From IMG/VR virus record IMGVR_UViG_3300021093_000004: a stretch of DNA of 64,000 bases. One strand, given 5' to 3'. Shown here piece after piece: positions 16 through 39,764 of this stretch; position 1 is the stretch's first letter; every line of letters starts with the position of its first letter. The position numbers were made by a program, and so were the translations under genes. The notes beneath the pieces were generated by a model. The model was not told the origin of the DNA, did not search any database, and saw nothing but the letters and a program-made list of their open reading frames with translations. The DNA comes from a virus (lineage: Duplodnaviria; Caudoviricetes).

Positions 16-1161
16 TTACTCGACAAAGCATACGTGGTTGGTTTGGGGTCCGGTTCCTACTATAGTTACCGGCAGACCAACCAAATCTTCAATGTCAAGT
101 ATGAAATCTTTCACCTTACTCGGTAGCTTGTTATAATCATTAGTCCCATAGCATGACCAATCGATATAGTTGGCAAAATTGAGGGCAATCTTCGTCGCCC
201 CGTTCGCAGCCACGGCGTCCAGAAGTTGTAATTTGGAGAAAGTGAACACCCGACGAAGCCGCTTGGTGACAGTGGTCAATTCGCCCTTCATAACATCTGG
301 TGGTGCACCACCGGCGGCAGCTACTTCGGCCCACGTAATTTCACTGTGGTCATCGTAACAATCACCGGAATATCCAACCGTATTGCCGTCTTCAATGACG
401 TTTCCCACGCGGATCGGATATGGTCTTATTACCAGATAAATATCGCCGATGAGAGAATGTCCGATTCCCATATCGGCGACGTTCTGAACTGCGGTTGTTC
501 CACGGCTGGTGCATTGTGGATAATGCGAACCGTGGTTGATATCGAGTGAGAACCCCTGTGATCCTTCATGCAGAGCGGTTTGCCCGTTTTGCAACAGGAA
601 TTTCAGAATCCGTGGAATTGACAGGTTCTCGGTGTTGCCGAGCTTAACGGTGAGTTCGTTCATCCGGCCAACAAATTGTTGAAGCTCTGGATAATCGCGT
701 GACAGCTTCAATTCCTTACGACGCATTACCTTGTCAGCAAGGAACGCCCCGCATCCTTGCATGGTGCTGGCGATGTGCTTTGTGCCGGTTTCGAGACTGG
801 CTTCTTGCTGTTTGTGTGAGTCGAGAATGACTCCAGCACGTGGATGAATGTGGGTGTTCTCTTGAACTCCGCAGATCTCGATTTCTTTCAGCATTTGGGC
901 CATGTCGTATGCCGATGACGCTCCTACGACGATGGCCGGTGAATAGTCTGTGCACCATTTCTTGAGAATTGCCGCCGATGGTAGTGCTTTAGCGACAAAA
1001 GCTTCTCCATCAATGTTGACCGCCGTATGTCCGGCGTTGCTCATGTTAGTTGTCGAGATTATTTCGGGTCGGTGTCTGTCTGCTAATGCAGTTGTGATAA
1101 GCCCTTTGCCGCAACTTCCCCACTGTCCATCAGTAACAACATTAAATCGGCCACTCAACAT
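16..1161 (-). CDS. purZ: PurZ-like 2-amino-2'-deoxyadenylosuccinate synthetase (adenylosuccinate synthetase family)
   Basis: GQWGSCGKG (Ser where PurA has Asp), NAGHT, EGSQGFSLD, TSR, RPYPIRV, ELTTVTKRLRRVFTFS, LNFANY (PurA has TKLD), GTGP. The family is certain; PurZ rather than PurA rests on these residues. Confidence 0.8.
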   Translation of the reverse strand: MLSGRFNVVTDGQWGSCGKGLITTALADRHRPEIISTTNMSNAGHTAVNIDGEAFVAKALPSAAILKKWCTDYSPAIVVGASSAYDMAQMLKEIEICGVQENTHIHPRAGVILDSHKQQEASLETGTKHIASTMQGCGAFLADKVMRRKELKLSRDYPELQQFVGRMNELTVKLGNTENLSIPRILKFLLQNGQTALHEGSQGFSLDINHGSHYPQCTSRGTTAVQNVADMGIGHSLIGDIYLVIRPYPIRVGNVIEDGNTVGYSGDCYDDHSEITWAEVAAAGGAPPDVMKGELTTVTKRLRRVFTFSKLQLLDAVAANGATKIALNFANYIDWSCYGTNDYNKLPSKVKDFILDIEDLVGLPVTIVGTGPQTNHVCFVE

Positions 1162-20485: not shown

Positions 20486-21880
20486 ATGGTGGAATTCAAG
20501 TACATCAAAAGATCAGCGTTGTCTTTGATTGAATTACTATGTGATTCAAGTAAGAAACCAGTTACGCTTGATGTTGAGCAGAAACCGGCCCCACCGGTTA
20601 CACGAAAAAGAGTTCGAGATCTTCCGACTAAAAAGAAACCACTCAATCAAATCGGTGAAACTCCGGTAATTCAACCACCCTCACCACCAACAGAACCAGA
20701 GTTAATTGCACGACCGACAGTCGAGTCTATTGAATTAATTGATAATGAATCCAAAGTATATAGACTCGGCGAGGTCTATACAGGTAGGAGAGTTATGATG
20801 AAGCACCTTGGACTCGATATTGGCACAAAAACTGTTGTGGTTGCGTTTCGCAACGGAGGCAAGGTTGATTATATCTCTGAGATTAATGGATATTGGCCGT
20901 TTGAACGAGCTACACCATTCGTCGAAAATATGCTCAACGATCCGAACAAAATTCGATCTGACGGGACACAACGTCCAGCGAGATGGATCAAGCTTGATTC
21001 CGGGCAGCTAGTCGTCCTTGGTCGAGACGCAGAAGAATTTGCGTATGCAAAGAACGATACTTTATTACGCCCGATGGCAGAAGGTGGTATCAGTCCGGAT
21101 GAAGAAGCATTGACGGTTCTTGCCAGTATCGTTCATGGGCTGCTTGAAACTGCTGAGCACGAACTCGGAAAATTTGAGGACGGTGTGCGTATATGCTATT
21201 GCACTACTGCCACCGCGATTAACAAGGACACGAATATTCAGTATCATGAACGTGTCGTCAATATGATTCTGGAGAGTTATAAGACTAAATCCAAGTTGAC
21301 TTACACGTCTGTGAAAGAGTCGCATGCGATTGTTCTGAATATGAGTGACGATGGAACCGGGATCGGTATATCGTGGGGTGCTGGAACTGTCACGGTTAGT
21401 TATGTCCGATACGGCATTGAGATCTATTCGTTTTGTTGGGTGGGGGCCGGTGACTGGATTGATGAGCAGGTCGCGATGCGACACGGTTACAATGTAGAAC
21501 GTTCAAAGACCAGAACCAAAGTTGCGAAAGAGACACCGACTACCGTCTCTAAACGAAAAATGGATGTTGATTTGACACCTGGGAAAGAACCTGAAGACCG
21601 TGTGGGTCTCGATATCGCATTGCACTATGATGTGTTGATTAGTCAAGTCATTGATGGGATTGTGTCTGGATTCAATGAACATGAATCTCAAGCACGAATC
21701 GATGGCGGTATTAATGTTTACATGGCGGGAGGCACATCATCTCCGAAGGGGTTTGCCAAACGGGTGGAACGAAAATTCGATGAGAAAAACCCACCGTTCG
21801 AAATCAATCTAATCACATGTCATGAGAAGCCGTTATATTGCGTGGCCGAAGGCTGCTTGAGAGCGGCTGAGATGAGTTAG
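20486..21880 (+). CDS. actin-fold (MreB/ParM-like) ATPase with Pro-rich N-terminal extension
   Basis: Phosphate-1 GLDIGTKTVV, LLRPMAEG, phosphate-2 GISWGAGTVTV, GAGDWID, adenosine MAGGTS, VAEGCL. Confidence 0.8.
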   Translation: MVEFKYIKRSALSLIELLCDSSKKPVTLDVEQKPAPPVTRKRVRDLPTKKKPLNQIGETPVIQPPSPPTEPELIARPTVESIELIDNESKVYRLGEVYTGRRVMMKHLGLDIGTKTVVVAFRNGGKVDYISEINGYWPFERATPFVENMLNDPNKIRSDGTQRPARWIKLDSGQLVVLGRDAEEFAYAKNDTLLRPMAEGGISPDEEALTVLASIVHGLLETAEHELGKFEDGVRICYCTTATAINKDTNIQYHERVVNMILESYKTKSKLTYTSVKESHAIVLNMSDDGTGIGISWGAGTVTVSYVRYGIEIYSFCWVGAGDWIDEQVAMRHGYNVERSKTRTKVAKETPTTVSKRKMDVDLTPGKEPEDRVGLDIALHYDVLISQVIDGIVSGFNEHESQARIDGGINVYMAGGTSSPKGFAKRVERKFDEKNPPFEINLITCHEKPLYCVAEGCLRAAEMS

Positions 21881-21934
21881 ACCGGATTTCCCATGTGATG
21901 TCTTCGGATTTCAATACCATCGCTTTATCGGTGA

Positions 21935-22678
21935 TTGGTAGTAACGATTGTGATGAAATCCATGTCTTCTTTACAAATCAAGTACGCTACTAAGGATGTT
22001 GTGGGATTCGTAGTCAACAGCGAGCTTTTCTATTTAAAATTCGGACCAAATATTCCACAATTGTTCGATGAATCTCTGTCTGGTCTCGTTATACCAAATC
22101 TCGATTCTTGGATTCAGTCAAAGACTCAACAGCGATATTCTTATCAATCACTGCGAGACATGGCGTTAGCGTTCCATGCGGGAATTTCTGCGGCTTATAA
22201 TCTCGACGATGTGCATACGTTGTGTGATTCAACTATTCAGTTCACAGTTCATGAAGTTAACCATAATAGTTTGATTTATGATTATTCTCTGATATATTGG
22301 ATCGAAATTCTTGGTCCGGATCAAATGGAGCTATATCTGAAAAAGATTAGGGACAACTTTGTCCGTATTCGTTCGCAGATTGGTGATGATAAATTATACA
22401 ATAATCTATGCCGAATGTATAAAACCTGTCTACGCCAGCAACCTCATAACGCCAATGTGTGTGAAAAACTTATTAAGCGTTTGGGCAGGATGCCGACAGA
22501 GCCGAGCTATCCTAAGACAGACGAGACCGATCAGCAGGTATTATTGAACACAAGAGAAGCTGTACGAAAGTCACTCGGCACGCACTATAAGAATATACCC
22601 GACCACATAGTAGAGGCTGTAAATGGTATACAAAGCGGAAGACTACCAAGGGCCGAAGGAATTCGTCCATCTTCATAA
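21935..22678 (+). CDS. hypothetical protein
   Basis: 247 aa ORF in a + strand operon; start uncertain. Confidence 0.65.
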   Translation: MVVTIVMKSMSSLQIKYATKDVVGFVVNSELFYLKFGPNIPQLFDESLSGLVIPNLDSWIQSKTQQRYSYQSLRDMALAFHAGISAAYNLDDVHTLCDSTIQFTVHEVNHNSLIYDYSLIYWIEILGPDQMELYLKKIRDNFVRIRSQIGDDKLYNNLCRMYKTCLRQQPHNANVCEKLIKRLGRMPTEPSYPKTDETDQQVLLNTREAVRKSLGTHYKNIPDHIVEAVNGIQSGRLPRAEGIRPSS

Positions 22679-24047
22679 TCATACGGTATTCTCCGCATTA
22701 GATGGCGTAGCCACTCCTGAGCAGTATGCCGAGCAATGCTATAAACGTGGATATCCGGCCATGAGTGCCACCGAGCATGGCCACATGGCATCTGTACCGG
22801 ACATGTACTTGGCATTTAAGAAATATAAGTTGAAATATATTCCCGGATGTGAGATTTATTTCAACGATTTCGAGCCAAAGAGACAAGAACTAGTCGCTCA
22901 AAAAGTGAAAATCCGCTCTCCTGAATGGCGGCAAGAAAACTTGGAGTTGGCCCAACGTATCGGTCGAAATCGACATCTCACTGTTCTATGTAAGAATGAA
23001 GTCGGTTTCCATAATCTAATAAAACTGACTACCCAGGCATATTCGACCGGACTGTTCGGACTGGGCCGAATACAATATAATCGAATCTGGTTTGATAAAT
23101 TGTGTGAATTCAAAGAAGGGCTTATTATTCTGTCTGGGTGCTTGAATGGCCCGGTGTGTCACGAACTGCGATATAAACAGTTGATGGACAGAGAAGGCAA
23201 TGTGCTGAAAGAACGCACTAAGAACGAACGTGTTCTCGATGCTGTTCGTTGGATTAAGAAATTCAAAGAGGCATTTGGAGAAGATTATTTTATCGAACTT
23301 CAAATGCCCGGAATCGAGGGTGACGACGTAATATTTCGTAACCTCGTCGATCTTGCCGATAGGTTCAAAATTCCGCTGGTACTCGCTAATGATTGCCATT
23401 ATCTGGGCCGCGAAGACTTCATTATTCAGAAAGTGATGATGGCTATTGAGCAGGAGACTACTGTTGACTCGCCTGACCTGTTTCATGTCAATAGCGACGA
23501 ACAATATATGAAGACCCGCGAAGAGCTGTGGGCCAGATTTAAGAACAATGGATATTCAAACGGGGTCGATGATCGAGTCTTTGAGCAGATGTGTGACAAT
23601 ACTCTGTTGGTTGCCGAGCGATGCCGTTCGCTTGATGTCGACATGTCCCCGAAGATTCCAGAAATAAACCGTGCTGACGATGAATTGAAACGAATCACTG
23701 CGGTTCGCTTGAAGCAGCTTGGATTGGATAAGAACCCTAAGCGATTTCTGATTGATGGGCGTGAAGTCACATATGTCGAGCAAGCGAAAATCGAACTTCA
23801 GCGGTTCATCGATAAGGGTTTCGCCAGTTACTTTTTAATCACACGCGATCTGGTAAGATATGGCCGATCTAAAGGTTGGCCGTTTAGCCCTCGTGGTAGT
23901 GCTGGTGGTTCACTGGTGTGTTACCTGCTTGGTATACATGTTATAGACCCCATGCTGTGGAATTTGTCATTCGACAGGTTTTTGTCGCCAAGTCGCGGCG
24001 GTTACATGCTAAATGTAACTATGCCGAAAGAGGAGTACATAAGTTAA
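22623..24047 (+). CDS. dnaE: DNA polymerase III alpha-like, N-terminal part (PHP domain plus RGS segment)
   Basis: HLHNHT..S.LDG, TEHG, GCEIY, SGCL, NDCHY, RGSAGGSLVCYLLGI, FDRFLSPSR; ends before PDIDxD. Confidence 0.9.
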   Translation: MVYKAEDYQGPKEFVHLHNHTVFSALDGVATPEQYAEQCYKRGYPAMSATEHGHMASVPDMYLAFKKYKLKYIPGCEIYFNDFEPKRQELVAQKVKIRSPEWRQENLELAQRIGRNRHLTVLCKNEVGFHNLIKLTTQAYSTGLFGLGRIQYNRIWFDKLCEFKEGLIILSGCLNGPVCHELRYKQLMDREGNVLKERTKNERVLDAVRWIKKFKEAFGEDYFIELQMPGIEGDDVIFRNLVDLADRFKIPLVLANDCHYLGREDFIIQKVMMAIEQETTVDSPDLFHVNSDEQYMKTREELWARFKNNGYSNGVDDRVFEQMCDNTLLVAERCRSLDVDMSPKIPEINRADDELKRITAVRLKQLGLDKNPKRFLIDGREVTYVEQAKIELQRFIDKGFASYFLITRDLVRYGRSKGWPFSPRGSAGGSLVCYLLGIHVIDPMLWNLSFDRFLSPSRGGYMLNVTMPKEEYIS

Positions 24048-24076
24048 CCCAACTGCCTTTTTAGGATGTACACTTT

Positions 24077-24619
24077 ATGAGTGCCGAATTTCCAAGATTG
24101 CCCGATGATCAGCCAAACATTTTGACAGAAGCAGAGTCTGGGCCTGAAGTCTTGGAAGTGGATTTGGGGACGTATCCGGGATTTATTAGTCAGGCGGCGT
24201 TGCAAGAATTAAAACACTCGATTCGTATGCACCTGATTCTTATGGCCGGGCCATCACAACAACTGTGTTCGTTTCTGATCAAGACCATTGACTTTTTTGA
24301 AGATTCGGACGAGGCACGCCGCGACAGGGAAATGCTCTCGCTGAGCTTCCATATCATTGAAGGTCTCGCTCTGTTCGTTCAGCAATCTGTGGACGAACGG
24401 GCAGACAAAGCGAAAGCGATGAATCAAGAATTCCCTCAGAGAATCAGGTTGGCTTCTGATAATATCCTGGTCATGGTCGGCAAGAGCCGTAATCTTGATG
24501 ATCGGGTCGCAGCCAAGTACGCGGTGTTGAGAACTGTCGCGGACGCATTACGAGAATTGGCTACATTCACGAAGGCTGTGTACCCACAAATCATTGATGC
24601 ATCTGGTAATGTTTTATGA
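24077..24619 (+). CDS. hypothetical protein
   Basis: 180 aa ATG ORF in operon. Confidence 0.7.
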   Translation: MSAEFPRLPDDQPNILTEAESGPEVLEVDLGTYPGFISQAALQELKHSIRMHLILMAGPSQQLCSFLIKTIDFFEDSDEARRDREMLSLSFHIIEGLALFVQQSVDERADKAKAMNQEFPQRIRLASDNILVMVGKSRNLDDRVAAKYAVLRTVADALRELATFTKAVYPQIIDASGNVL

Positions 24620-25080
24620 AATTCACCATCTTCTGCGATGTTGTTGTAAAGGACGAAGGTCAGGCCACTCAAATGGCGGGATGTGGTGTCGCCATTATCG
24701 CTGAAGAAGGTGCACGATCGAAAAAACGATCATACTCGTTCGGTCTTGGTGGTTCTGATACCGAACTATCTAATATCCAGGTTGTCAGGCTTGCATTAGC
24801 ATCGGTGCTGCCGCCGTTTCGCAAGTCTGAAGTTCTTCTGCATGTCACTGACAGAAGAGCGATCGATCTTTTGGCCCGGTCTGGGGCTGATTATAGTATA
24901 ACGCCTGACAAATATCAAGTCGAAATCGCTGAATTGCGAAAATGGTATAAGTATTATTCCAATATCACATTTATCCTTGATGCCAGTGCTGATAAAAATA
25001 TCATTGAAGCCCATGGTTTGGCAACTGCTGCTTGCCAGACTCAGAAGAATACTGATTCTAACACCATTGATATCTCGTAG
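24616..25080 (+). CDS. RNase H-like fold protein, degenerate
   Basis: FTIFCD, GCGVAII, LALASV, LLHVTD, AHGLATAA follow the RNase HI layout, but the Glu and last Asp equivalents are not evident. Confidence 0.5.
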   Translation: MKFTIFCDVVVKDEGQATQMAGCGVAIIAEEGARSKKRSYSFGLGGSDTELSNIQVVRLALASVLPPFRKSEVLLHVTDRRAIDLLARSGADYSITPDKYQVEIAELRKWYKYYSNITFILDASADKNIIEAHGLATAACQTQKNTDSNTIDIS

Positions 25081-25129
25081 TGTTGAAATAGCGACATGAT
25101 TCGCTTTATCGAGATTGATTGAGGATTAA

Positions 25130-25900
25130 ATGTCTCTTGAAGTTAAATTGACTAGCATACGAGTTAATAAAAGTCGAAAGATTAATGATGTAGATGTAAA
25201 ACGAGACAGCGAAGAAATCTATAATATTGATGGAACAGAATACTCACTCGATGGTGCTGTAGAATATTTGTCATCCAAAAAATCGCATAATCCCGGCGAA
25301 ATCGCCTATTCAAAGACTGCGTTTTTGTTGGTAGAACCTCCTTCACGGGTAATCTCTGCGCATCAAGCCAAGAATCGGCAGGACCACAAGGCATTAATTG
25401 CCAAAGCGAATGTAAAAGGATTATATCTATATTATGCGGACGTGAAATGTAGAGATGGGAAATATTATGCCGTCAAACCATGGATAGTCGATTGGGAGAC
25501 CGTCCCTGAACACCCAGAAGAAATTGCGAAACGCGAGGCCCAACAGGAGAAAAAGAAGGCAAAGGAAGCAACAAAAGAGGTACCTGAAACGCCAGAACAA
25601 GACTCGCTTACATGCCCGTATTGCTCCAAACGTATGTCAAGTACATCTGGCTTGACGCTTCATATAAAATCCAAACATCCGGATAAATTAAACCAGCATC
25701 AAACAAGCACGATGCTGGATGAAGACGACGTGGTAAGTCGTGCGTCTGAAGTGGAAGAAGTCGGACAATCACAGAGTCTCGATAGTCTTCAATGTCCGTT
25801 TTGTGATAAAAAGATGACCAGCACTCCTGGCAGAACTCTGCATATTAAAAGCAAGCATCCAGAGCGATTAGCGGAATATTTGGAGATGGATCGTGACTGA
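25130..25900 (+). CDS. protein with two C2H2 zinc fingers
   Basis: CPYCSKRMSSTSGLTLHIKSKHP and CPFCDKKMTSTPGRTLHIKSKHP. Confidence 0.8.
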   Translation: MSLEVKLTSIRVNKSRKINDVDVKRDSEEIYNIDGTEYSLDGAVEYLSSKKSHNPGEIAYSKTAFLLVEPPSRVISAHQAKNRQDHKALIAKANVKGLYLYYADVKCRDGKYYAVKPWIVDWETVPEHPEEIAKREAQQEKKKAKEATKEVPETPEQDSLTCPYCSKRMSSTSGLTLHIKSKHPDKLNQHQTSTMLDEDDVVSRASEVEEVGQSQSLDSLQCPFCDKKMTSTPGRTLHIKSKHPERLAEYLEMDRD

Positions 25901-28631
25901 CACATGGGAACAGCTAGAATCACTTGCCCGATCCGCATTAGAGAAACGCGGACTGAATGGCGTGTATAGCGAACGTCTCGATTTCGAACTCAAAGAGATC
26001 GATAAGCAAGGTGCGAATGCTTATTGGCTTGCACTGGTGTCTGCTGATAAAAAGTTTAAGTCCAATCCGAGCATGCTGGTATTGCCATGGTTGTTGGGAA
26101 TGGTTCAAGATGACCCCATTGCCAATCGTAAGGAACCGATGCTGTGCAGTGTGCGTGCGTCGGTGGTCAAAGAGCATTTGCGAACGCACGGCAAAATCCC
26201 ATCGGATCTGATTAAAGATCAGGACATGCCGGATATTGACCTCGATTGCTTGCCGGAAGCACGAGACCCGATTAAAGAATATGCAATGGAGCAATATGGG
26301 GTCGGATTGAATGATGATGGTTACGGTCCTGTGTGTAGTGTCGGCACGTGGCAGACATATAAATTCAAATCGGCGATCATGGACGTGTCAAAAGCTCTGG
26401 AAGCTGTTGATCCGGCAAGAGTTTTCGAACTAACCAAGAAACTACCGGAAGACGTAGACAATCTTAAAGATGGCGGATATGCTGCGTGCAAGAACCGCGT
26501 TATCGATGGAATTACTAATCAAGAAAAAGAATGTGGGACAGTTCACGATCAAGCTGTGTGTCCGTCGTGTGGGTCATCGGACACTGATGCTCCCACTATT
26601 GGTAAGCTTTTGCAAGAACACGCTGATTTAGCTGCGTTCAATCGGCTTTTTCCAACAGTTATAGACTATGCAGTGAAACTAGTTGGGCGTATCCGAAATA
26701 TGGGTATGCACGCCGGGGCGTTGATTATCGCCGATCGAACGTTGTATGGCAATATTCCACTCGCGAAGAATAGCAATCGTGGATACTGGGTGTCGATGTG
26801 GACAGAAGGCAGAAATACTCAACTGTCGAAATTTGGATATTGCAAATGGGACGTTCTTGGATTAAAGACTCTTGAATATATCTTCAGATGCTCTCAGCTT
26901 ATTGAACAAAATCGCGGTATTACATTTGGTCCAAATGCCGAAGGCTGGGATGATATTGACCCTCTTCAAAATCGTGCGGGGCATTATTTTGATGGCTGTG
27001 GGAAAAAGTGCTACATCAATCTGAATGATCCACACGCTCTCAAACTTGCTAACGAGCAGAAGACTGATGCTGTTTTCCAATTTGATACCGATCTAGCCAA
27101 AAGTTTTTTGGCACACGGTGTCCGGCATTTTAATGACTTGATGTTGATAAACGCTATGGGCCACCCTGGGCCGATGGCATCGATTCCTGAAGCAATGCAA
27201 AATCGAGATGATAAGAAGGCATTGTGGAAACAGAAGCTTCATCCGGATATCTTGCAAGTTCTCGAAGACACTTATGGGGTTATTGTCTATCAAGAGCAGT
27301 TGCAGGCCATATGGCAACGCTTGGCTGGGTTCACCGCGCCGGAAGCTCAGGAAGCCCGGAAAGCTGTTGCTAAAAAATGGGCACATAAATTGAAGCCGAT
27401 TCGGGCTAAATGGATCGATGGTGCCTCGAAAACTCTTGGTCGTGCTGAAGCCGAATTATGGTGGACCAAGATGGAAACGTTCGGGCGATATGCATTCAAT
27501 AAATCTCACTCTGTGTCATATTGTTTAGTGGCTCTTCGCTGTTTATGGTTAAAGGCCCATTTCGCTCCGGAGTTTTGGGCTGCGGTGATGAGCGATTGTC
27601 ATCCGGATAAACTGGTTAGGTATATGAGTGTTGCTCGTGCCGAAGACTGGCACCCGACTGATATCACGTATTCCGGGCGTGCTCCGAAAGTGCGAGCCAA
27701 AGGCATCACATTTGGAACGTTGAACATTGATAATCTCACCGTCAATTATACTGTTACTGATGATATTGTCAATCAGGGACTCATTGGAATTAAAAAAGTC
27801 GGTGACAAAGCTGCTGAAGTATTCGCCGGTCGTGGTAATTGGACTAGCATCGATGAATTTGTTGAGTCGTCAGAAGGCAGACGAAATAAGACTGTTTTAG
27901 AGCGATTCATCAAACTTGGCGCGTTCGGTTCAATTAAGGGTCATGAAAATTCTCAAGCATTGTGGCAGTGGTACCAATACCAATATTGCTCTGGTGTGAC
28001 TGCATTGAGGACGGAAATTCGGCAGAAACTACTGGCCGAAGATGGTTGGAATGACAAGACCATCAATGAGGAACGGAATCGACAGATTGACGAATATAAG
28101 CGTCAATTTCCGAATCGTCGTAAAATTCCGCCTAAATTCAATAATTGGGTACCTAAGCCTGACGACACCCGCGAACGAGTAATGGCGTTGTATCGGGAAG
28201 ACTTTAGCCAAGCCGAGAAACTTGCGTTTCAGAAAGAATTTTTGGGCTATTATCTTGACTCACCTTTGGAATTGTTTGCTATTCGCGGTGGATGCACTAT
28301 CAAAGATGCAAAAGCTGCGTGCATTGCTGGTGCTGAAGATGCTCATCTTGAGGTCATGGTGGTTGACCAACAGTTTGCGACTACGAAACCGCGTGACGGT
28401 CGAAGTGGGTCACAATATGTCAAACTGACTGTGACAGATGGCATTCAACGAACCATGATATTTATATGGAATAATGAATTATCTTGTCAAGATCCTCAAA
28501 ATTTGGTCGAAGGTGCAGGCATCCGCATGCGAGTACGATACGACAAGCAGCGTGGCACATTCAGTATGTGTCATGGTTCGAATATAATTAGCTTACGTCG
28601 CTATCAAGAAGACGAAAATGCAACTACCTGA
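25893..28631 (+). CDS. dnaE: DNA polymerase III alpha-like, C-terminal catalytic part
   Basis: MPDIDLD, GMHAGALII, KWDVLGLKTL, VFQF, YGVIVYQEQ, FGRYAFNKSHSVSY, EFLGYYL, C-terminal OB-like region. Confidence 0.93.
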   Translation: MTDTWEQLESLARSALEKRGLNGVYSERLDFELKEIDKQGANAYWLALVSADKKFKSNPSMLVLPWLLGMVQDDPIANRKEPMLCSVRASVVKEHLRTHGKIPSDLIKDQDMPDIDLDCLPEARDPIKEYAMEQYGVGLNDDGYGPVCSVGTWQTYKFKSAIMDVSKALEAVDPARVFELTKKLPEDVDNLKDGGYAACKNRVIDGITNQEKECGTVHDQAVCPSCGSSDTDAPTIGKLLQEHADLAAFNRLFPTVIDYAVKLVGRIRNMGMHAGALIIADRTLYGNIPLAKNSNRGYWVSMWTEGRNTQLSKFGYCKWDVLGLKTLEYIFRCSQLIEQNRGITFGPNAEGWDDIDPLQNRAGHYFDGCGKKCYINLNDPHALKLANEQKTDAVFQFDTDLAKSFLAHGVRHFNDLMLINAMGHPGPMASIPEAMQNRDDKKALWKQKLHPDILQVLEDTYGVIVYQEQLQAIWQRLAGFTAPEAQEARKAVAKKWAHKLKPIRAKWIDGASKTLGRAEAELWWTKMETFGRYAFNKSHSVSYCLVALRCLWLKAHFAPEFWAAVMSDCHPDKLVRYMSVARAEDWHPTDITYSGRAPKVRAKGITFGTLNIDNLTVNYTVTDDIVNQGLIGIKKVGDKAAEVFAGRGNWTSIDEFVESSEGRRNKTVLERFIKLGAFGSIKGHENSQALWQWYQYQYCSGVTALRTEIRQKLLAEDGWNDKTINEERNRQIDEYKRQFPNRRKIPPKFNNWVPKPDDTRERVMALYREDFSQAEKLAFQKEFLGYYLDSPLELFAIRGGCTIKDAKAACIAGAEDAHLEVMVVDQQFATTKPRDGRSGSQYVKLTVTDGIQRTMIFIWNNELSCQDPQNLVEGAGIRMRVRYDKQRGTFSMCHGSNIISLRRYQEDENATT

Positions 28632-29181
28632 TAAATCCGGAATCTCTTGTGATTCGTGTGGGATCACGTATCGCACAGATTTTTCATATTATTCGTTTGA
28701 TTTTCATAATGTCGCTGTTTATAATAATCAGCGACCTCCCATAGATACCATTATTCGATCCAATACTATATTTTCTGTTGATATTTGTACCAATTGCTTC
28801 GAAATTATAAGGAAAACGCTGATAGACAACTATTCCGAAATCATGGCTCCGAAGCGTGCAGCAAAACCGACACCGACTGTTACATGTGAGATGACCGGAA
28901 AGAAGCTTGCCGGAACATATGAATATTATTATTGTGTCGTCGCCAAAGCAAATGTCAAAATGTCTGGACAGCCAAATGTGTGCGTCAAATGCAGGACGCA
29001 GACTTTTGACAGCGATAAGCCGTGTTCGAAATGCTCTGGGAAGGAATTTATTCGGCTCGCTGCTATGGACATTGATCGTCGGCATGTCGAGATAAGTATG
29101 TGCGAGGAAGCGTACAAAGCATTTGTAATCAAAGCCGAGACGATTCGCAAGACGGCTGGGCAATGGTCAACTAAATCATGA
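28618..29181 (+). CDS. Cys-rich hypothetical protein
   Basis: Several CxxC pairs (CDSC, CTNC, CVKC, CSKC). Confidence 0.7.
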   Translation: MQLPDKSGISCDSCGITYRTDFSYYSFDFHNVAVYNNQRPPIDTIIRSNTIFSVDICTNCFEIIRKTLIDNYSEIMAPKRAAKPTPTVTCEMTGKKLAGTYEYYYCVVAKANVKMSGQPNVCVKCRTQTFDSDKPCSKCSGKEFIRLAAMDIDRRHVEISMCEEAYKAFVIKAETIRKTAGQWSTKS

Positions 29182-29344
29182 AGCGAACATGGTTGCGTGC
29201 GATCTTGGTTTACCTTATTCGTATAAATATATAGACAACACCGCAGTAATAATTATCACAATGATAGCCCACAAAGCCTGTTCGAAATGCCGGTTAATCA
29301 AACATGAAATATATCAGTAACTGTGACTCGACAGGAATATTGAG

Positions 29345-29635
29345 ATGAGAGCTTTCACTGAAGCATATGCGGAGTTACTCGAAGGAGTGGCTAAAAAATA
29401 TCAGAATCCAGAAGGCGGATTAAATTCCAAGGGTAGAGCACATTTCAAACGCACGGAAGGGGCGAATTTAAAGCCTCCTGTAAGCTCAAAGCAAGCATCC
29501 AAGTCTCCTGCTAAAGCTAAAAGAAGACGGTCTTTCTGTTCTCGGATGGGCGGTCAGAAGAAAATGCATAATATAGACTGTAGTGCCACACCTGATAAAG
29601 ATATATGTAAGGCACTTAGAAAATGGGATTGTTAA
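29345..29635 (+). CDS. DUF6321-like small basic phage protein
   Basis: NPEGGLNSKGR...RRRSFCSRM...KALRKWDC pattern recognised from large-phage proteins. Confidence 0.7.
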   Translation: MRAFTEAYAELLEGVAKKYQNPEGGLNSKGRAHFKRTEGANLKPPVSSKQASKSPAKAKRRRSFCSRMGGQKKMHNIDCSATPDKDICKALRKWDC

Positions 29636-38456: not shown

Positions 38457-39764
38457 GTGTGTTTTGAGGATGTGAGCACTATCTATTTTTACACATTGTT
38501 TGATCCCACGTCCGGTAAGCCGCGATGTGCGGGCATACGTATTGGCGACAAGATTACTGTTTATGATCTATTCCGCCCCGGTGCTGGTAAGAAAATTCGC
38601 ACTATCAATGAGACTATAGCCAAAATCCGCGAGTTTCTTATAACATCGAATGATCGTGGCCACACGATCATAGCTTCTAACTTCAAAAAGCTCCTGCATA
38701 CGTATGGTCTGCCATTAGATTCTCGACAGTATAATGTGTATGATGTTCACATCGATAATCCGGCTAATCCGATTCGTCCGACCAACAGTCAATCAAAAGA
38801 CAATTTGCTGTTGCGAAAGATTCTAGAACGAATGGCATCGGGCCATCACTATGAATACCAGAAATTAATATCTAATGCTGCCGTAGTTTACCAAGATTTG
38901 GAAAATCGTGGCCTTTTTATTAATGACGAATTATTTAGACCAGAATGGTCTATGATTACATTCTCTGGTCGTAGCAAGACTACTGGATTCAATATTCAAG
39001 GATTTCATGAAGACCACTATGTCCGAACAGTTGATGCATCAATGAATAGTGTGCTGCTGCATTTTGACTGGATTTCGGCTGATATTCGTGCTGCGTCATT
39101 ATTATCTGGGGACCCATTATTAACTAAAAGTTTCGAATCCTCTGACCCGTACACTGAAATGGTCGGGTTCTTCCAGAAGCACAGAGCCGGGGAGATAGAC
39201 AGAGAGGAATGTAAAAAGTATCTGCTGCGTTCTATAAACTCGATGGACATTGAAAGCGATGCATTTGTCATTTATCAGCAATTGGGTGAATGGATACTGA
39301 AATGTTATAATATCACTCGTAAATCTGATGGATTCCTTGAAACATTATTACATCGTAGGTTTAAGGTTTCTCGTGCGAAAAATGCATTGGCAGTGTTGAA
39401 TGGAGCTATGCAAGGATCAGTCGCCCATGCAATGCACGCTGCTATTAGAAGGATTTGGGAGCGTCTTGGGTCATATATTTTGGTCGAGATTCATGACTCT
39501 ATTATTATGTCGGTTCCAAATGATTCGGCTGTGATACGGGCTACGATAGATACTGTAGCACCGATAATGATGCATCCGTTTTCGGGATTATTAGCAGATG
39601 ACCCATTGTTTCCAGTCAGAGTGAGTATTGGAAAGCGTTGGAAGAAATGGCAATTATTAGAGACTCATCGAGCGTCTGGAATTGAACGTGTCCAAAAAAC
39701 GCGACAAGCAACTCCAACGACAGCGATCGAAGGCCAAGAAACGGGAAAACCGGCTGAAGCGTGA
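38457..39764 (+). CDS. minimal family A DNA polymerase-like protein (palm/fingers, no clear exonuclease)
   Basis: TFSGR, motif A HFDWISADIR, motif B REECKK, NGAMQGSVA, motif C VEIHDS. Confidence 0.8.
   Translation: MCFEDVSTIYFYTLFDPTSGKPRCAGIRIGDKITVYDLFRPGAGKKIRTINETIAKIREFLITSNDRGHTIIASNFKKLLHTYGLPLDSRQYNVYDVHIDNPANPIRPTNSQSKDNLLLRKILERMASGHHYEYQKLISNAAVVYQDLENRGLFINDELFRPEWSMITFSGRSKTTGFNIQGFHEDHYVRTVDASMNSVLLHFDWISADIRAASLLSGDPLLTKSFESSDPYTEMVGFFQKHRAGEIDREECKKYLLRSINSMDIESDAFVIYQQLGEWILKCYNITRKSDGFLETLLHRRFKVSRAKNALAVLNGAMQGSVAHAMHAAIRRIWERLGSYILVEIHDSIIMSVPNDSAVIRATIDTVAPIMMHPFSGLLADDPLFPVRVSIGKRWKKWQLLETHRASGIERVQKTRQATPTTAIEGQETGKPAEA

Follow-up and report, generated by a model that had tools for sequence, protein, structure and literature searches.

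Can a replicative DNA polymerase work when its catalytic centre is divided between two separately encoded chains? The question is raised by a 64,000-nucleotide stretch of viral DNA (hereafter the window), a portion of the 157-kb IMG/VR virus record IMGVR_UViG_3300021093_000004, which is estimated to be 43% complete. In this window, a DnaE-type polymerase is encoded by two open reading frames (ORFs), here called part 1 and part 2, with three small genes between them. We propose, with a probability of about three in four, that the pair forms the replicative family C (DnaE type) polymerase of freshwater jumbo phages with genomes of ~350–400 kb, made from two co-transcribed genes and assembled as a non-covalent heterodimer. 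The split had been described in an earlier note on this DNA, whose ORF coordinates (22623–24047 and 25893–28631) are correct and whose observation we confirm in every point. The features of the two parts, with residues numbered within each chain, are as follows.

22623..24047, + strand: dnaE part 1, 474 residues; PHP domain and N-terminal palm subdomain with the GS nucleotide-binding loop (Pfam, phrog_405).
22668..23303, + strand: PHP domain core, residues 16–227 (Pfam).
23751..23996, + strand: intact copy of the duplicated palm segment, residues 377–458 (PF07733 positions 16–98; hhalign to canonical DnaE, E 2e-35).
23892–23912, + strand: RGSAGGS loop, residues 424–430, with R424, G425, S426, G429 and S430 invariant in 118 homologs.
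23997..24047, + strand: conserved C-terminal tail GGYMLNVTMPKEEYIS, then the stop codon (hhalign to the canonical VSMPDxDxDF strand).
25893..28631, + strand: dnaE part 2, 912 residues, GTG start; decayed palm copy, Asp strand, thumb with Cys4 insert, fingers, helix-hairpin-helix (HhH) and C-terminal region.
25893..26222, + strand: N-terminal extension of part 2, residues 1–110, a degenerate paralog of the segment with the GS motif, from which the loop itself is missing.
26223..26246, + strand: DMPDIDLD catalytic Asp strand (D114, D116, D118), invariant in 110 homologs and aligned to SMPDIDTD of Thermus aquaticus (Taq) DnaE.
26487..26570, + strand: Cys4 (+His218) zinc-ribbon-like thumb insert with C199, C214, C223 and C226 (conservation, model).
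26844..26852, + strand: K318-W319-D320, third catalytic Asp strand, invariant in 110 homologs and aligned to the Taq palm strand.
26871..27947, + strand: fingers (residues 327–513; PF17657, 2.6e-30) and HhH (residues 609–685; PF14579, 1.4e-6).

The place of the break is sharply defined. Part 1 matches the Pfam PHP family PF02811 (1.9e-31, residues 16–227) and then positions 16–98 only of the PF07733 profile; part 2 takes up PF07733 from its residue 110 (positions 99–260), and PF17657 and PF14579 follow. Because the boundary between positions 98 and 99 of PF07733 separates the two parts, the break is exact to one profile position, and it lies between RGSAGGS on part 1 (residues 424–430) and MPDIDLD on part 2 (residues 112–118). 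PHROG 405, the full-length phage DnaE family, is partitioned in the same manner, with part 1 covering positions 41–439 and part 2 positions 440–998. The earlier reading that part 1 has the PHP domain and RGSAGGS and ends before the Asp motif, and that part 2 carries the catalytic Asp motifs, is borne out by Pfam and by residue positions, D114, D116, D118 and D320 all being invariant. In the PHP domain, H16, H18, D27, H52, E77, H118, C173, D257 and H259 are invariant or at least 90% conserved in the 118 part 1 homologs; judging by the motif and by the known ligands of Taq and Mycobacterium tuberculosis (Mtb) DnaE, we take these nine residues to be putative metal ligands. Of the hallmarks of family C, PHP, GS loop and three catalytic aspartates (on two chains), fingers and HhH are present, and a departure from that family is the missing continuity of the polypeptide, the two ORFs lying 1.85 kb apart.

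R424, G425 and S426 stand on chain 1, D114, D116, D118 and K318-W319-D320 on chain 2, and the chain 2 copy of the segment has lost its GS loop; a single active site would accordingly require the two chains together. In the mechanism that we propose, chain 1 would supply the metal-complete PHP domain, likely as a proofreader, together with a palm subdomain whose R-G-S loop would hold the triphosphate of the incoming dNTP. Chain 2 would supply the three catalytic aspartates, the thumb, the fingers and the DNA-binding modules, and the single nucleotidyl-transfer site would be complete only once the two chains dock. An active site built from both chains had been suggested in the earlier note, and computation now supports it through conservation, the lost GS loop, the lack of a fused relative and a model of the complex, each of which is considered below.

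The split arrangement is widespread among relatives. At E <= 1e-10, part 1 has 805 metagenomic homologs and part 2 has 783, most of the 120 listed for each being about 470 and about 900 residues long, respectively, and the listed homologs of both parts lie on contigs of up to 438 kb. The order of part 1, three small genes and part 2 is kept in 9/9 relatives examined (eight from IMG/VR and one more distant contig). No fused close relative was found among the longer proteins searched with part 1. Those longer proteins that are more than 38% identical to part 1 contain PHP and PF07733, none has the part 2 finger or HhH domains, and intein/Hint domains are found in most of them; the next matches are bacterial DnaE proteins at no more than 35% identity. 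A complete relative of 408 kb has this DnaE pair only, and family B polymerase (PF00136) is absent both from it and from the window's record. The split enzyme is thus likely to be the replicase.

Structure prediction points in the same direction. Modelling of the complex, proposed in the earlier note, was carried out on part 1 together with residues 1–365 of part 2, and it passed its controls: the interface score ipSAE was 0.88, where the best of three controls gave 0.00, and the mark applied to this score is reached by 58 of 80 solved complexes and by 2 of 110 mismatched pairs. Between runs, no fewer than 86% of contacts are shared, and the predicted local distance difference test (pLDDT) score of the partner is at least 81. 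The predicted interface consists of residues 396–427 and 456–473 of chain 1 and residues 31–65 and 105–135 of chain 2, and it includes PHP patches against the palm sheet. Within it, residues 410 and 413 of the live part 1 segment (396–427) are predicted to contact residues 130 and 131 of the helix that follows the Asp strand, and L463 of the part 1 tail to contact E35 of the extension. This interface is enriched in conserved extension residues (12/19 vs 6 expected, p 0.002). The predicted complex supports binding of the two parts.

What, then, is the extension that the model places in the interface? Comparison of profiles suggests that an overlap of ~120 residues, corresponding approximately to E. 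coli residues 290–410, is present on both genes and has decayed on them in complementary fashion. Simple searches do not see this. Direct BLASTP of the part 1 segment vs the part 2 segment gives E 0.36 and 23% identity over 62 residues, which is not significant, and a close-family profile reaches only P 0.0036. A HMMER profile of 110 close-family extensions finds nothing relevant among PDB sequences. Against 1.84 billion representatives (50%-identity clusters), the extension profile has 182 matches at E <= 0.001, of which the best 150 all carry the segment at their own N-terminus, with no internal DnaE segment among those 150. HMMER is blind to the homology of the extension, and profile–profile comparison with the wider family was therefore needed. 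When 107 N-terminal extensions of the wider family are compared by hhalign with the canonical segment of 35 bacterial DnaE proteins, the probability is 97.9 and E is 3.7e-13; the same profile also matches the C-terminus of part 1 (probability 95.7, E 9e-9). The GPGRGSAAGS loop is opposite a gap in either alignment, and the GS loop is absent from the part 2 copy across the family. Distant extensions look much closer to canonical DnaE, as in NGLVLPWLLGITDIDPI vs GSLVAYLLGITDIDPL. PF07733 is the family with most matches among the extensions alone (11/110), and in two relatives its Pfam match runs through the extension (profile positions 5–260 and 9–260). The degenerate copy that the earlier note had recognized at the start of part 2 is thus real, with its GS loop deleted. 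What that note termed an internal duplication holds as far as the duplicated segment is concerned, but it is better described as an overlap duplicated across the break, with complementary decay on the two genes.

Part 1 appears to hold the counterpart of this decay. It runs only 16 residues past its last canonical position, and hhalign places VTMPKEEYIS of its tail GGYMLNVTMPKEEYIS against the canonical VSMPDIDVDF; the tail is thus probably a dead remnant of the catalytic Asp strand (VTMPKEEY), and residues 456–468 fall within the predicted interface. In the 118 homologs, G459, G460 and L463 of the tail are invariant and Y461 and M467 are at least 90% conserved, and the same tail, FDRFLSPSRGG[YR]ML.., recurs in the distant relatives L004, L015 and L017. 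We infer that the break arose inside the duplicated overlap, such that chain 1 would have kept the helices and the GS loop and chain 2 the Asp strand. In the predicted complex, the two dead remnants pack on each other and on the live segment, and they may in this way form a latch that holds the two halves together.

Several points weigh against the heterodimer and its latch. First of all, the homology of the tail to the Asp strand extends over 10 residues and depends on a short alignment. Second, the enrichment of conserved extension residues in the interface is not independent of the alignments that drive the complex model. Third, since the pair resembles solved single-chain DNA polymerase III (Pol III) alpha proteins, the score of the complex may partly reflect memory of those structures, and the alignments used were our own. 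Finally, a model of part 2 alone sets the extension in canonical sequence order, which fits a different role of the extension as well as it fits a latch. According to that alternative, the heterodimer is real, and the extension fills the palm slot in free part 2, so as to hold that chain folded but inactive, and is displaced when the live segment of part 1 docks, thus acting as an assembly checkpoint. The AlphaFold2 (AF2) model of part 2 residues 1–365 gives the extension a pLDDT of about 90 (~87–96), and it can be aligned without change of order to Pol III alpha, starting at residue 284 of E. coli, 303 of Taq and 314 of Mtb, with Z 8.8 and 8.4; the Z of 8.8 is for model residues 1..327 against 314..595 of 5lew, and the alignment starts with the canonical palm. 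Moreover, the extension is a separate gene for 130 residues in some relatives, which speaks for an autonomous module. The root-mean-square deviation of these alignments is, however, 12–13 Å, so the extension is not closely in the canonical position, and the complex model keeps its residues 31–65 in touch with the part 1 tail and the live segment instead of expelling them. We regard a displaced placeholder as unlikely.

A second alternative would do away with the heterodimer and have two independent enzymes, with part 2 self-sufficient through its own extension as the N-terminal palm subdomain and part 1 a PHP nuclease or pyrophosphatase that acts by itself and retains no more than a vestige of the palm. 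Each palm element indeed has its copy on part 2, in sequence order, and PHP domains do exist as separate proteins. The R-G-S triphosphate loop is, however, missing from the extension throughout the family and invariant on part 1, the palm piece of part 1 (65–87% identity) is more conserved than part 2, and the palm of part 2 alone is modelled at low confidence (54–76). The relative L009 (4506–6779) bears on the same point, as it has a split intein exactly between G425 and S426 of the part 1 GS loop: piece 1a ends in …PRG followed by CTTPDAL…TSDH…, and piece 1b reads …VFSSN followed by SAGGSLVCYLLG. Inteins favour the most constrained sites, and this insertion therefore supports a working GS loop on part 1. 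We consider two self-standing enzymes to be distinctly improbable.

Inteins also bring up a third alternative, namely that an intron, protein trans-splicing or ribosomal bypass yields a single chain after all. In relatives, other sites in these genes do hold inteins, some of them split, and a split intein joins the cyanobacterial DnaE (PMC3919608). In the window, neither part has a Pfam match to Hint/intein families at E <= 0.01, in keeping with the earlier note, which saw no intein motifs. The 16-residue tail of part 1 and the junction of part 2, which reads DQD followed by MPD with neither HN nor a Cys, Ser or Thr nucleophile, speak against trans-splicing. Furthermore, Rfam reports no intron within 21500–29500, the 1.85 kb between the halves are three conserved genes, and a joined product would contain the duplicated segment twice. 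Joining is accordingly very improbable.

The last alternative is a recent disruption, a pseudogene or a misassembly. In four lake-water runs, none of them flagged as a source of the record, contigs reproduce 22400–28800 at 99% or better, free of indels and joints, and one contig of 3.4 kb spans from inside part 1 through the three intervening genes to part 2; since independent lake contigs give the same DNA, the split is not an assembly error. Although the contig is a metagenomic fragment and ~43% complete, a broken gene has next to no probability and is already refuted as far as sequence data reach, given the identical architecture in hundreds of homologs down to 46% identity, the strong constraint on both parts and the agreement of the four independent runs.

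The heterodimer thus being our preferred reading, we turn to the genes that separate its two halves. The earlier note had counted three, and this is borne out:

24077..24619, + strand: g180, conserved helical protein, first intervening gene.
24616..25080, + strand: g154, RNase HI-fold protein, second intervening gene, whose start overlaps the g180 stop.
25130..25900, + strand: g256, third intervening gene, with two C2H2-type zinc fingers (residues 159–184 and ~222–246).

Homologs of g180 occupy the same position in L003, L005, L006 and L009, with more diverged ones in L004 and L008; the protein has no match in Pfam, PHROG, NCBIfam, PDB or Atlas. For g154, the AF2 model (pLDDT 89, predicted template modelling score 0.85) is matched by Foldseek to RNase HI structures with E 2.6e-8 to 1e-6 and template modelling scores of 0.70–0.79. 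An active RNase H was considered and rejected: the fold matches, but the acidic residues that align by eye with the RNase H catalytic positions (D8, E50, D79 and D122) are not conserved in relatives. g154 may be an accessory protein of the replicase with an inactive RNase H fold. The end of g256 overlaps the start of part 2 by 8 nucleotides, and a homolog stands directly upstream of part 2 in 8/8 IMG/VR relatives. Its Pfam matches are zf-Di19 (4.4e-10), Zn_SUZ12 and zf-BED, with only C2H2 fingers seen. Apart from these fingers, no Pfam, PHROG or NCBIfam family matches any of the three genes, and none of them therefore looks like a homing endonuclease. Throughout the block, start and stop codons overlap or lie no more than 50 nucleotides apart, and there is no terminator-like site on the + strand between its genes; the block thus reads as one operon. 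Directly after part 2, and overlapping its end, lies g187 (28618..29181, + strand), a Cys-rich protein that contains several CxxC pairs and matches no family; its homologs are found directly downstream in L003–L008.

The thumb insert of part 2, which the earlier note had described as a zinc finger, is confirmed. In the 110 part 2 homologs, C199, C214, C223 and C226 never vary, and H218 shows at least 90% conservation. These cysteines lie within a stretch of 67 residues (187–253) where the thumb region of Taq DnaE has 28, and AF2 models the insert as short strands with pLDDT 92–97. The insert is found in 104/106 close-family proteins vs 13/30 distant representatives, and is therefore younger than the split.

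In some relatives, the polymerase is divided further. Part 2 of L009 is interrupted after approximately residue 347 by more than 6 kb; together with the intein-split part 1, this gives a DnaE in at least four pieces. In L017 (4456–8124) and L018 (488–4398), the separate extension gene encodes ~80 residues of extension and a conserved tail of ~50 residues, and it is located ~1 kb upstream of the remainder, which bears the Asp strand; in L017, a reverse-strand DUF7487 gene lies between the two. The ~50-residue tail resembles intein block B. No Rfam intron, no Pfam match for the tail and no matching C-terminal intein half were found for these extension genes.

The genomic surroundings are in keeping with a large phage. 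Many lake-water metagenomes contain DNA that is near-identical to the window, which also encodes RecA, a DnaB-type helicase, a gp32-like protein, an NAD-dependent ligase, glycosyltransferases and a Volactin-family actin, a neighbourhood that points to a jumbo phage. Among the public runs that contain such DNA, no RNA run is listed. The gene for the Volactin-family protein, an archaeal-type actin, is located just upstream of part 1 (20486–21880, + strand; Pfam 6.9e-43), and an actin-like gene is also next to part 1 in L004, L007, L008, L010 and L017. Megablast of 12 kb against cultured phages gave no match, and the best tblastn matches in cultured phages are single-chain DnaE proteins of ~25–32% identity; the one inspected among these, the DnaE of Moorella phage MTATph1, is contiguous.

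A further question concerns the bases that this polymerase would copy. The earlier note had named the pair a candidate for handling dZTP, the triphosphate of 2-aminoadenine (Z). One gene at the edge of the window is relevant here:

16..1161, − strand: PurZ-like adenylosuccinate-synthetase homolog (NF038379 PurZ, 3.7e-65, 220 bits; PF00709 match).

Its 220 bits fall under the NCBIfam PurZ cut-off of 300 and are close to the 211 bits obtained with the short PurA model; its phage relatives are annotated as PurZ-type, and PurA/PurZ-like genes are present in 4/5 relatives' records. In the relative G003, the homologous PurZ-like gene lies within an open frame of 1232 residues, which suggests an intein there too. 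The idea of dZTP handling has this gene as its sole basis, and we see no link to Z in the split, the duplication or the zinc insert. For family C polymerases, we are aware of no sequence feature that marks the use of Z. If the phage DNA does contain Z, the DnaE must accept dZTP, and it would be the first family C polymerase on a Z genome, the known Z-genome polymerases being family A DpoZ enzymes (PMC12884076). The window also encodes a 435-residue protein (38457–39764, + strand) whose match to family A polymerases (PF00476, 1.2e-8) is confined to the C-terminal palm motifs, with a further, very weak match to the DpoZ model (E 9.5e-4).

Taken further, these observations can be assembled into a more ambitious scenario, in which the palm helix-loop-strand unit was duplicated in tandem and its copies, through complementary decay, became a reciprocal latch resembling a domain swap, the three intervening genes encode further replicase subunits, and the enzyme is the first of family C to copy a 2-aminoadenine genome. 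In such a latch, the live strand of chain 2 would receive the live helices of chain 1, and its dead helices would receive the dead strand of chain 1, which would have allowed the active site of a replicative polymerase to be shared out over two chains. We consider this whole combination doubtful. The heterodimer itself would offer a natural test case for an active site shared between chains and a possible source of self-assembling polymerase halves. Non-covalent splits through the catalytic centre of a replicative polymerase are rare, and this one is old and abundant in hundreds of lake and marine phage lineages; its duplicated overlap with complementary decay would be a visible record of the fission. 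It may also serve as a guide to annotation, as automatic pipelines call such genes fragments or 'hypothetical'.

We finally compare the phage pair with known systems. First of all, single-chain DnaE or Pol III alpha proteins (T. aquaticus 2HPI/4IQJ, M. tuberculosis DnaE1 5LEW/7PU7 and E. coli 2HNH) have the same domain order of PHP, palm, thumb, fingers and HhH and the same motifs RGSxxGS, PDxDxD and KxD, and the nearest full-length relatives are 30–35% identical to part 1. The phage enzyme, on the other hand, consists of two polypeptides, has the ~120 residues around the break in two copies, either of them half-decayed, and carries a Cys4 thumb insert of ~40 residues; the OB-fold (PF01336) was not reported in the Pfam scan of part 2. 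Second, the cyanobacterial DnaE is likewise encoded by two genes (dnaE-n and dnaE-c, with the Ssp/Npu split intein), but its break is elsewhere and is healed by protein trans-splicing, whereas the phage break is without intein halves. Third, genes in pieces that arise from mobile-element insertion also concern an essential enzyme, an active site shared by two chains and foreign genes between them. Aeh1 NrdA-a/NrdA-b with mobE is reportedly such a case. Unlike these, and unlike fractured genes (Dassa et al. 2009, PMC2677866), the phage pair has intervening genes that are without a homing-endonuclease family and are conserved in the clade instead of sporadic. Finally, the closest precedent is the minimal Pol III alpha of group 2.2 jumbo phages, which is split without inteins into an NTP-binding protein and a Mg2+/template-binding protein, lacks PHP and other domains, and, in phages that also have a family B polymerase, is encoded by genes far apart (Iyer et al. 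2021, PMC7824862). This minimal form is the only related description that we found in the literature, which yielded none of a full-size split with a duplicated overlap. The phage pair shares its boundary between NTP-binding and Mg-binding proteins; unlike it, the pair is full-size, with PHP, fingers and HhH, its genes are 1.85 kb apart in one block, the overlap is duplicated, and neither the window's record nor the complete relative has a family B polymerase. The polymerase described here is split at a known boundary, and its full-size form with a duplicated overlap is a new variant.

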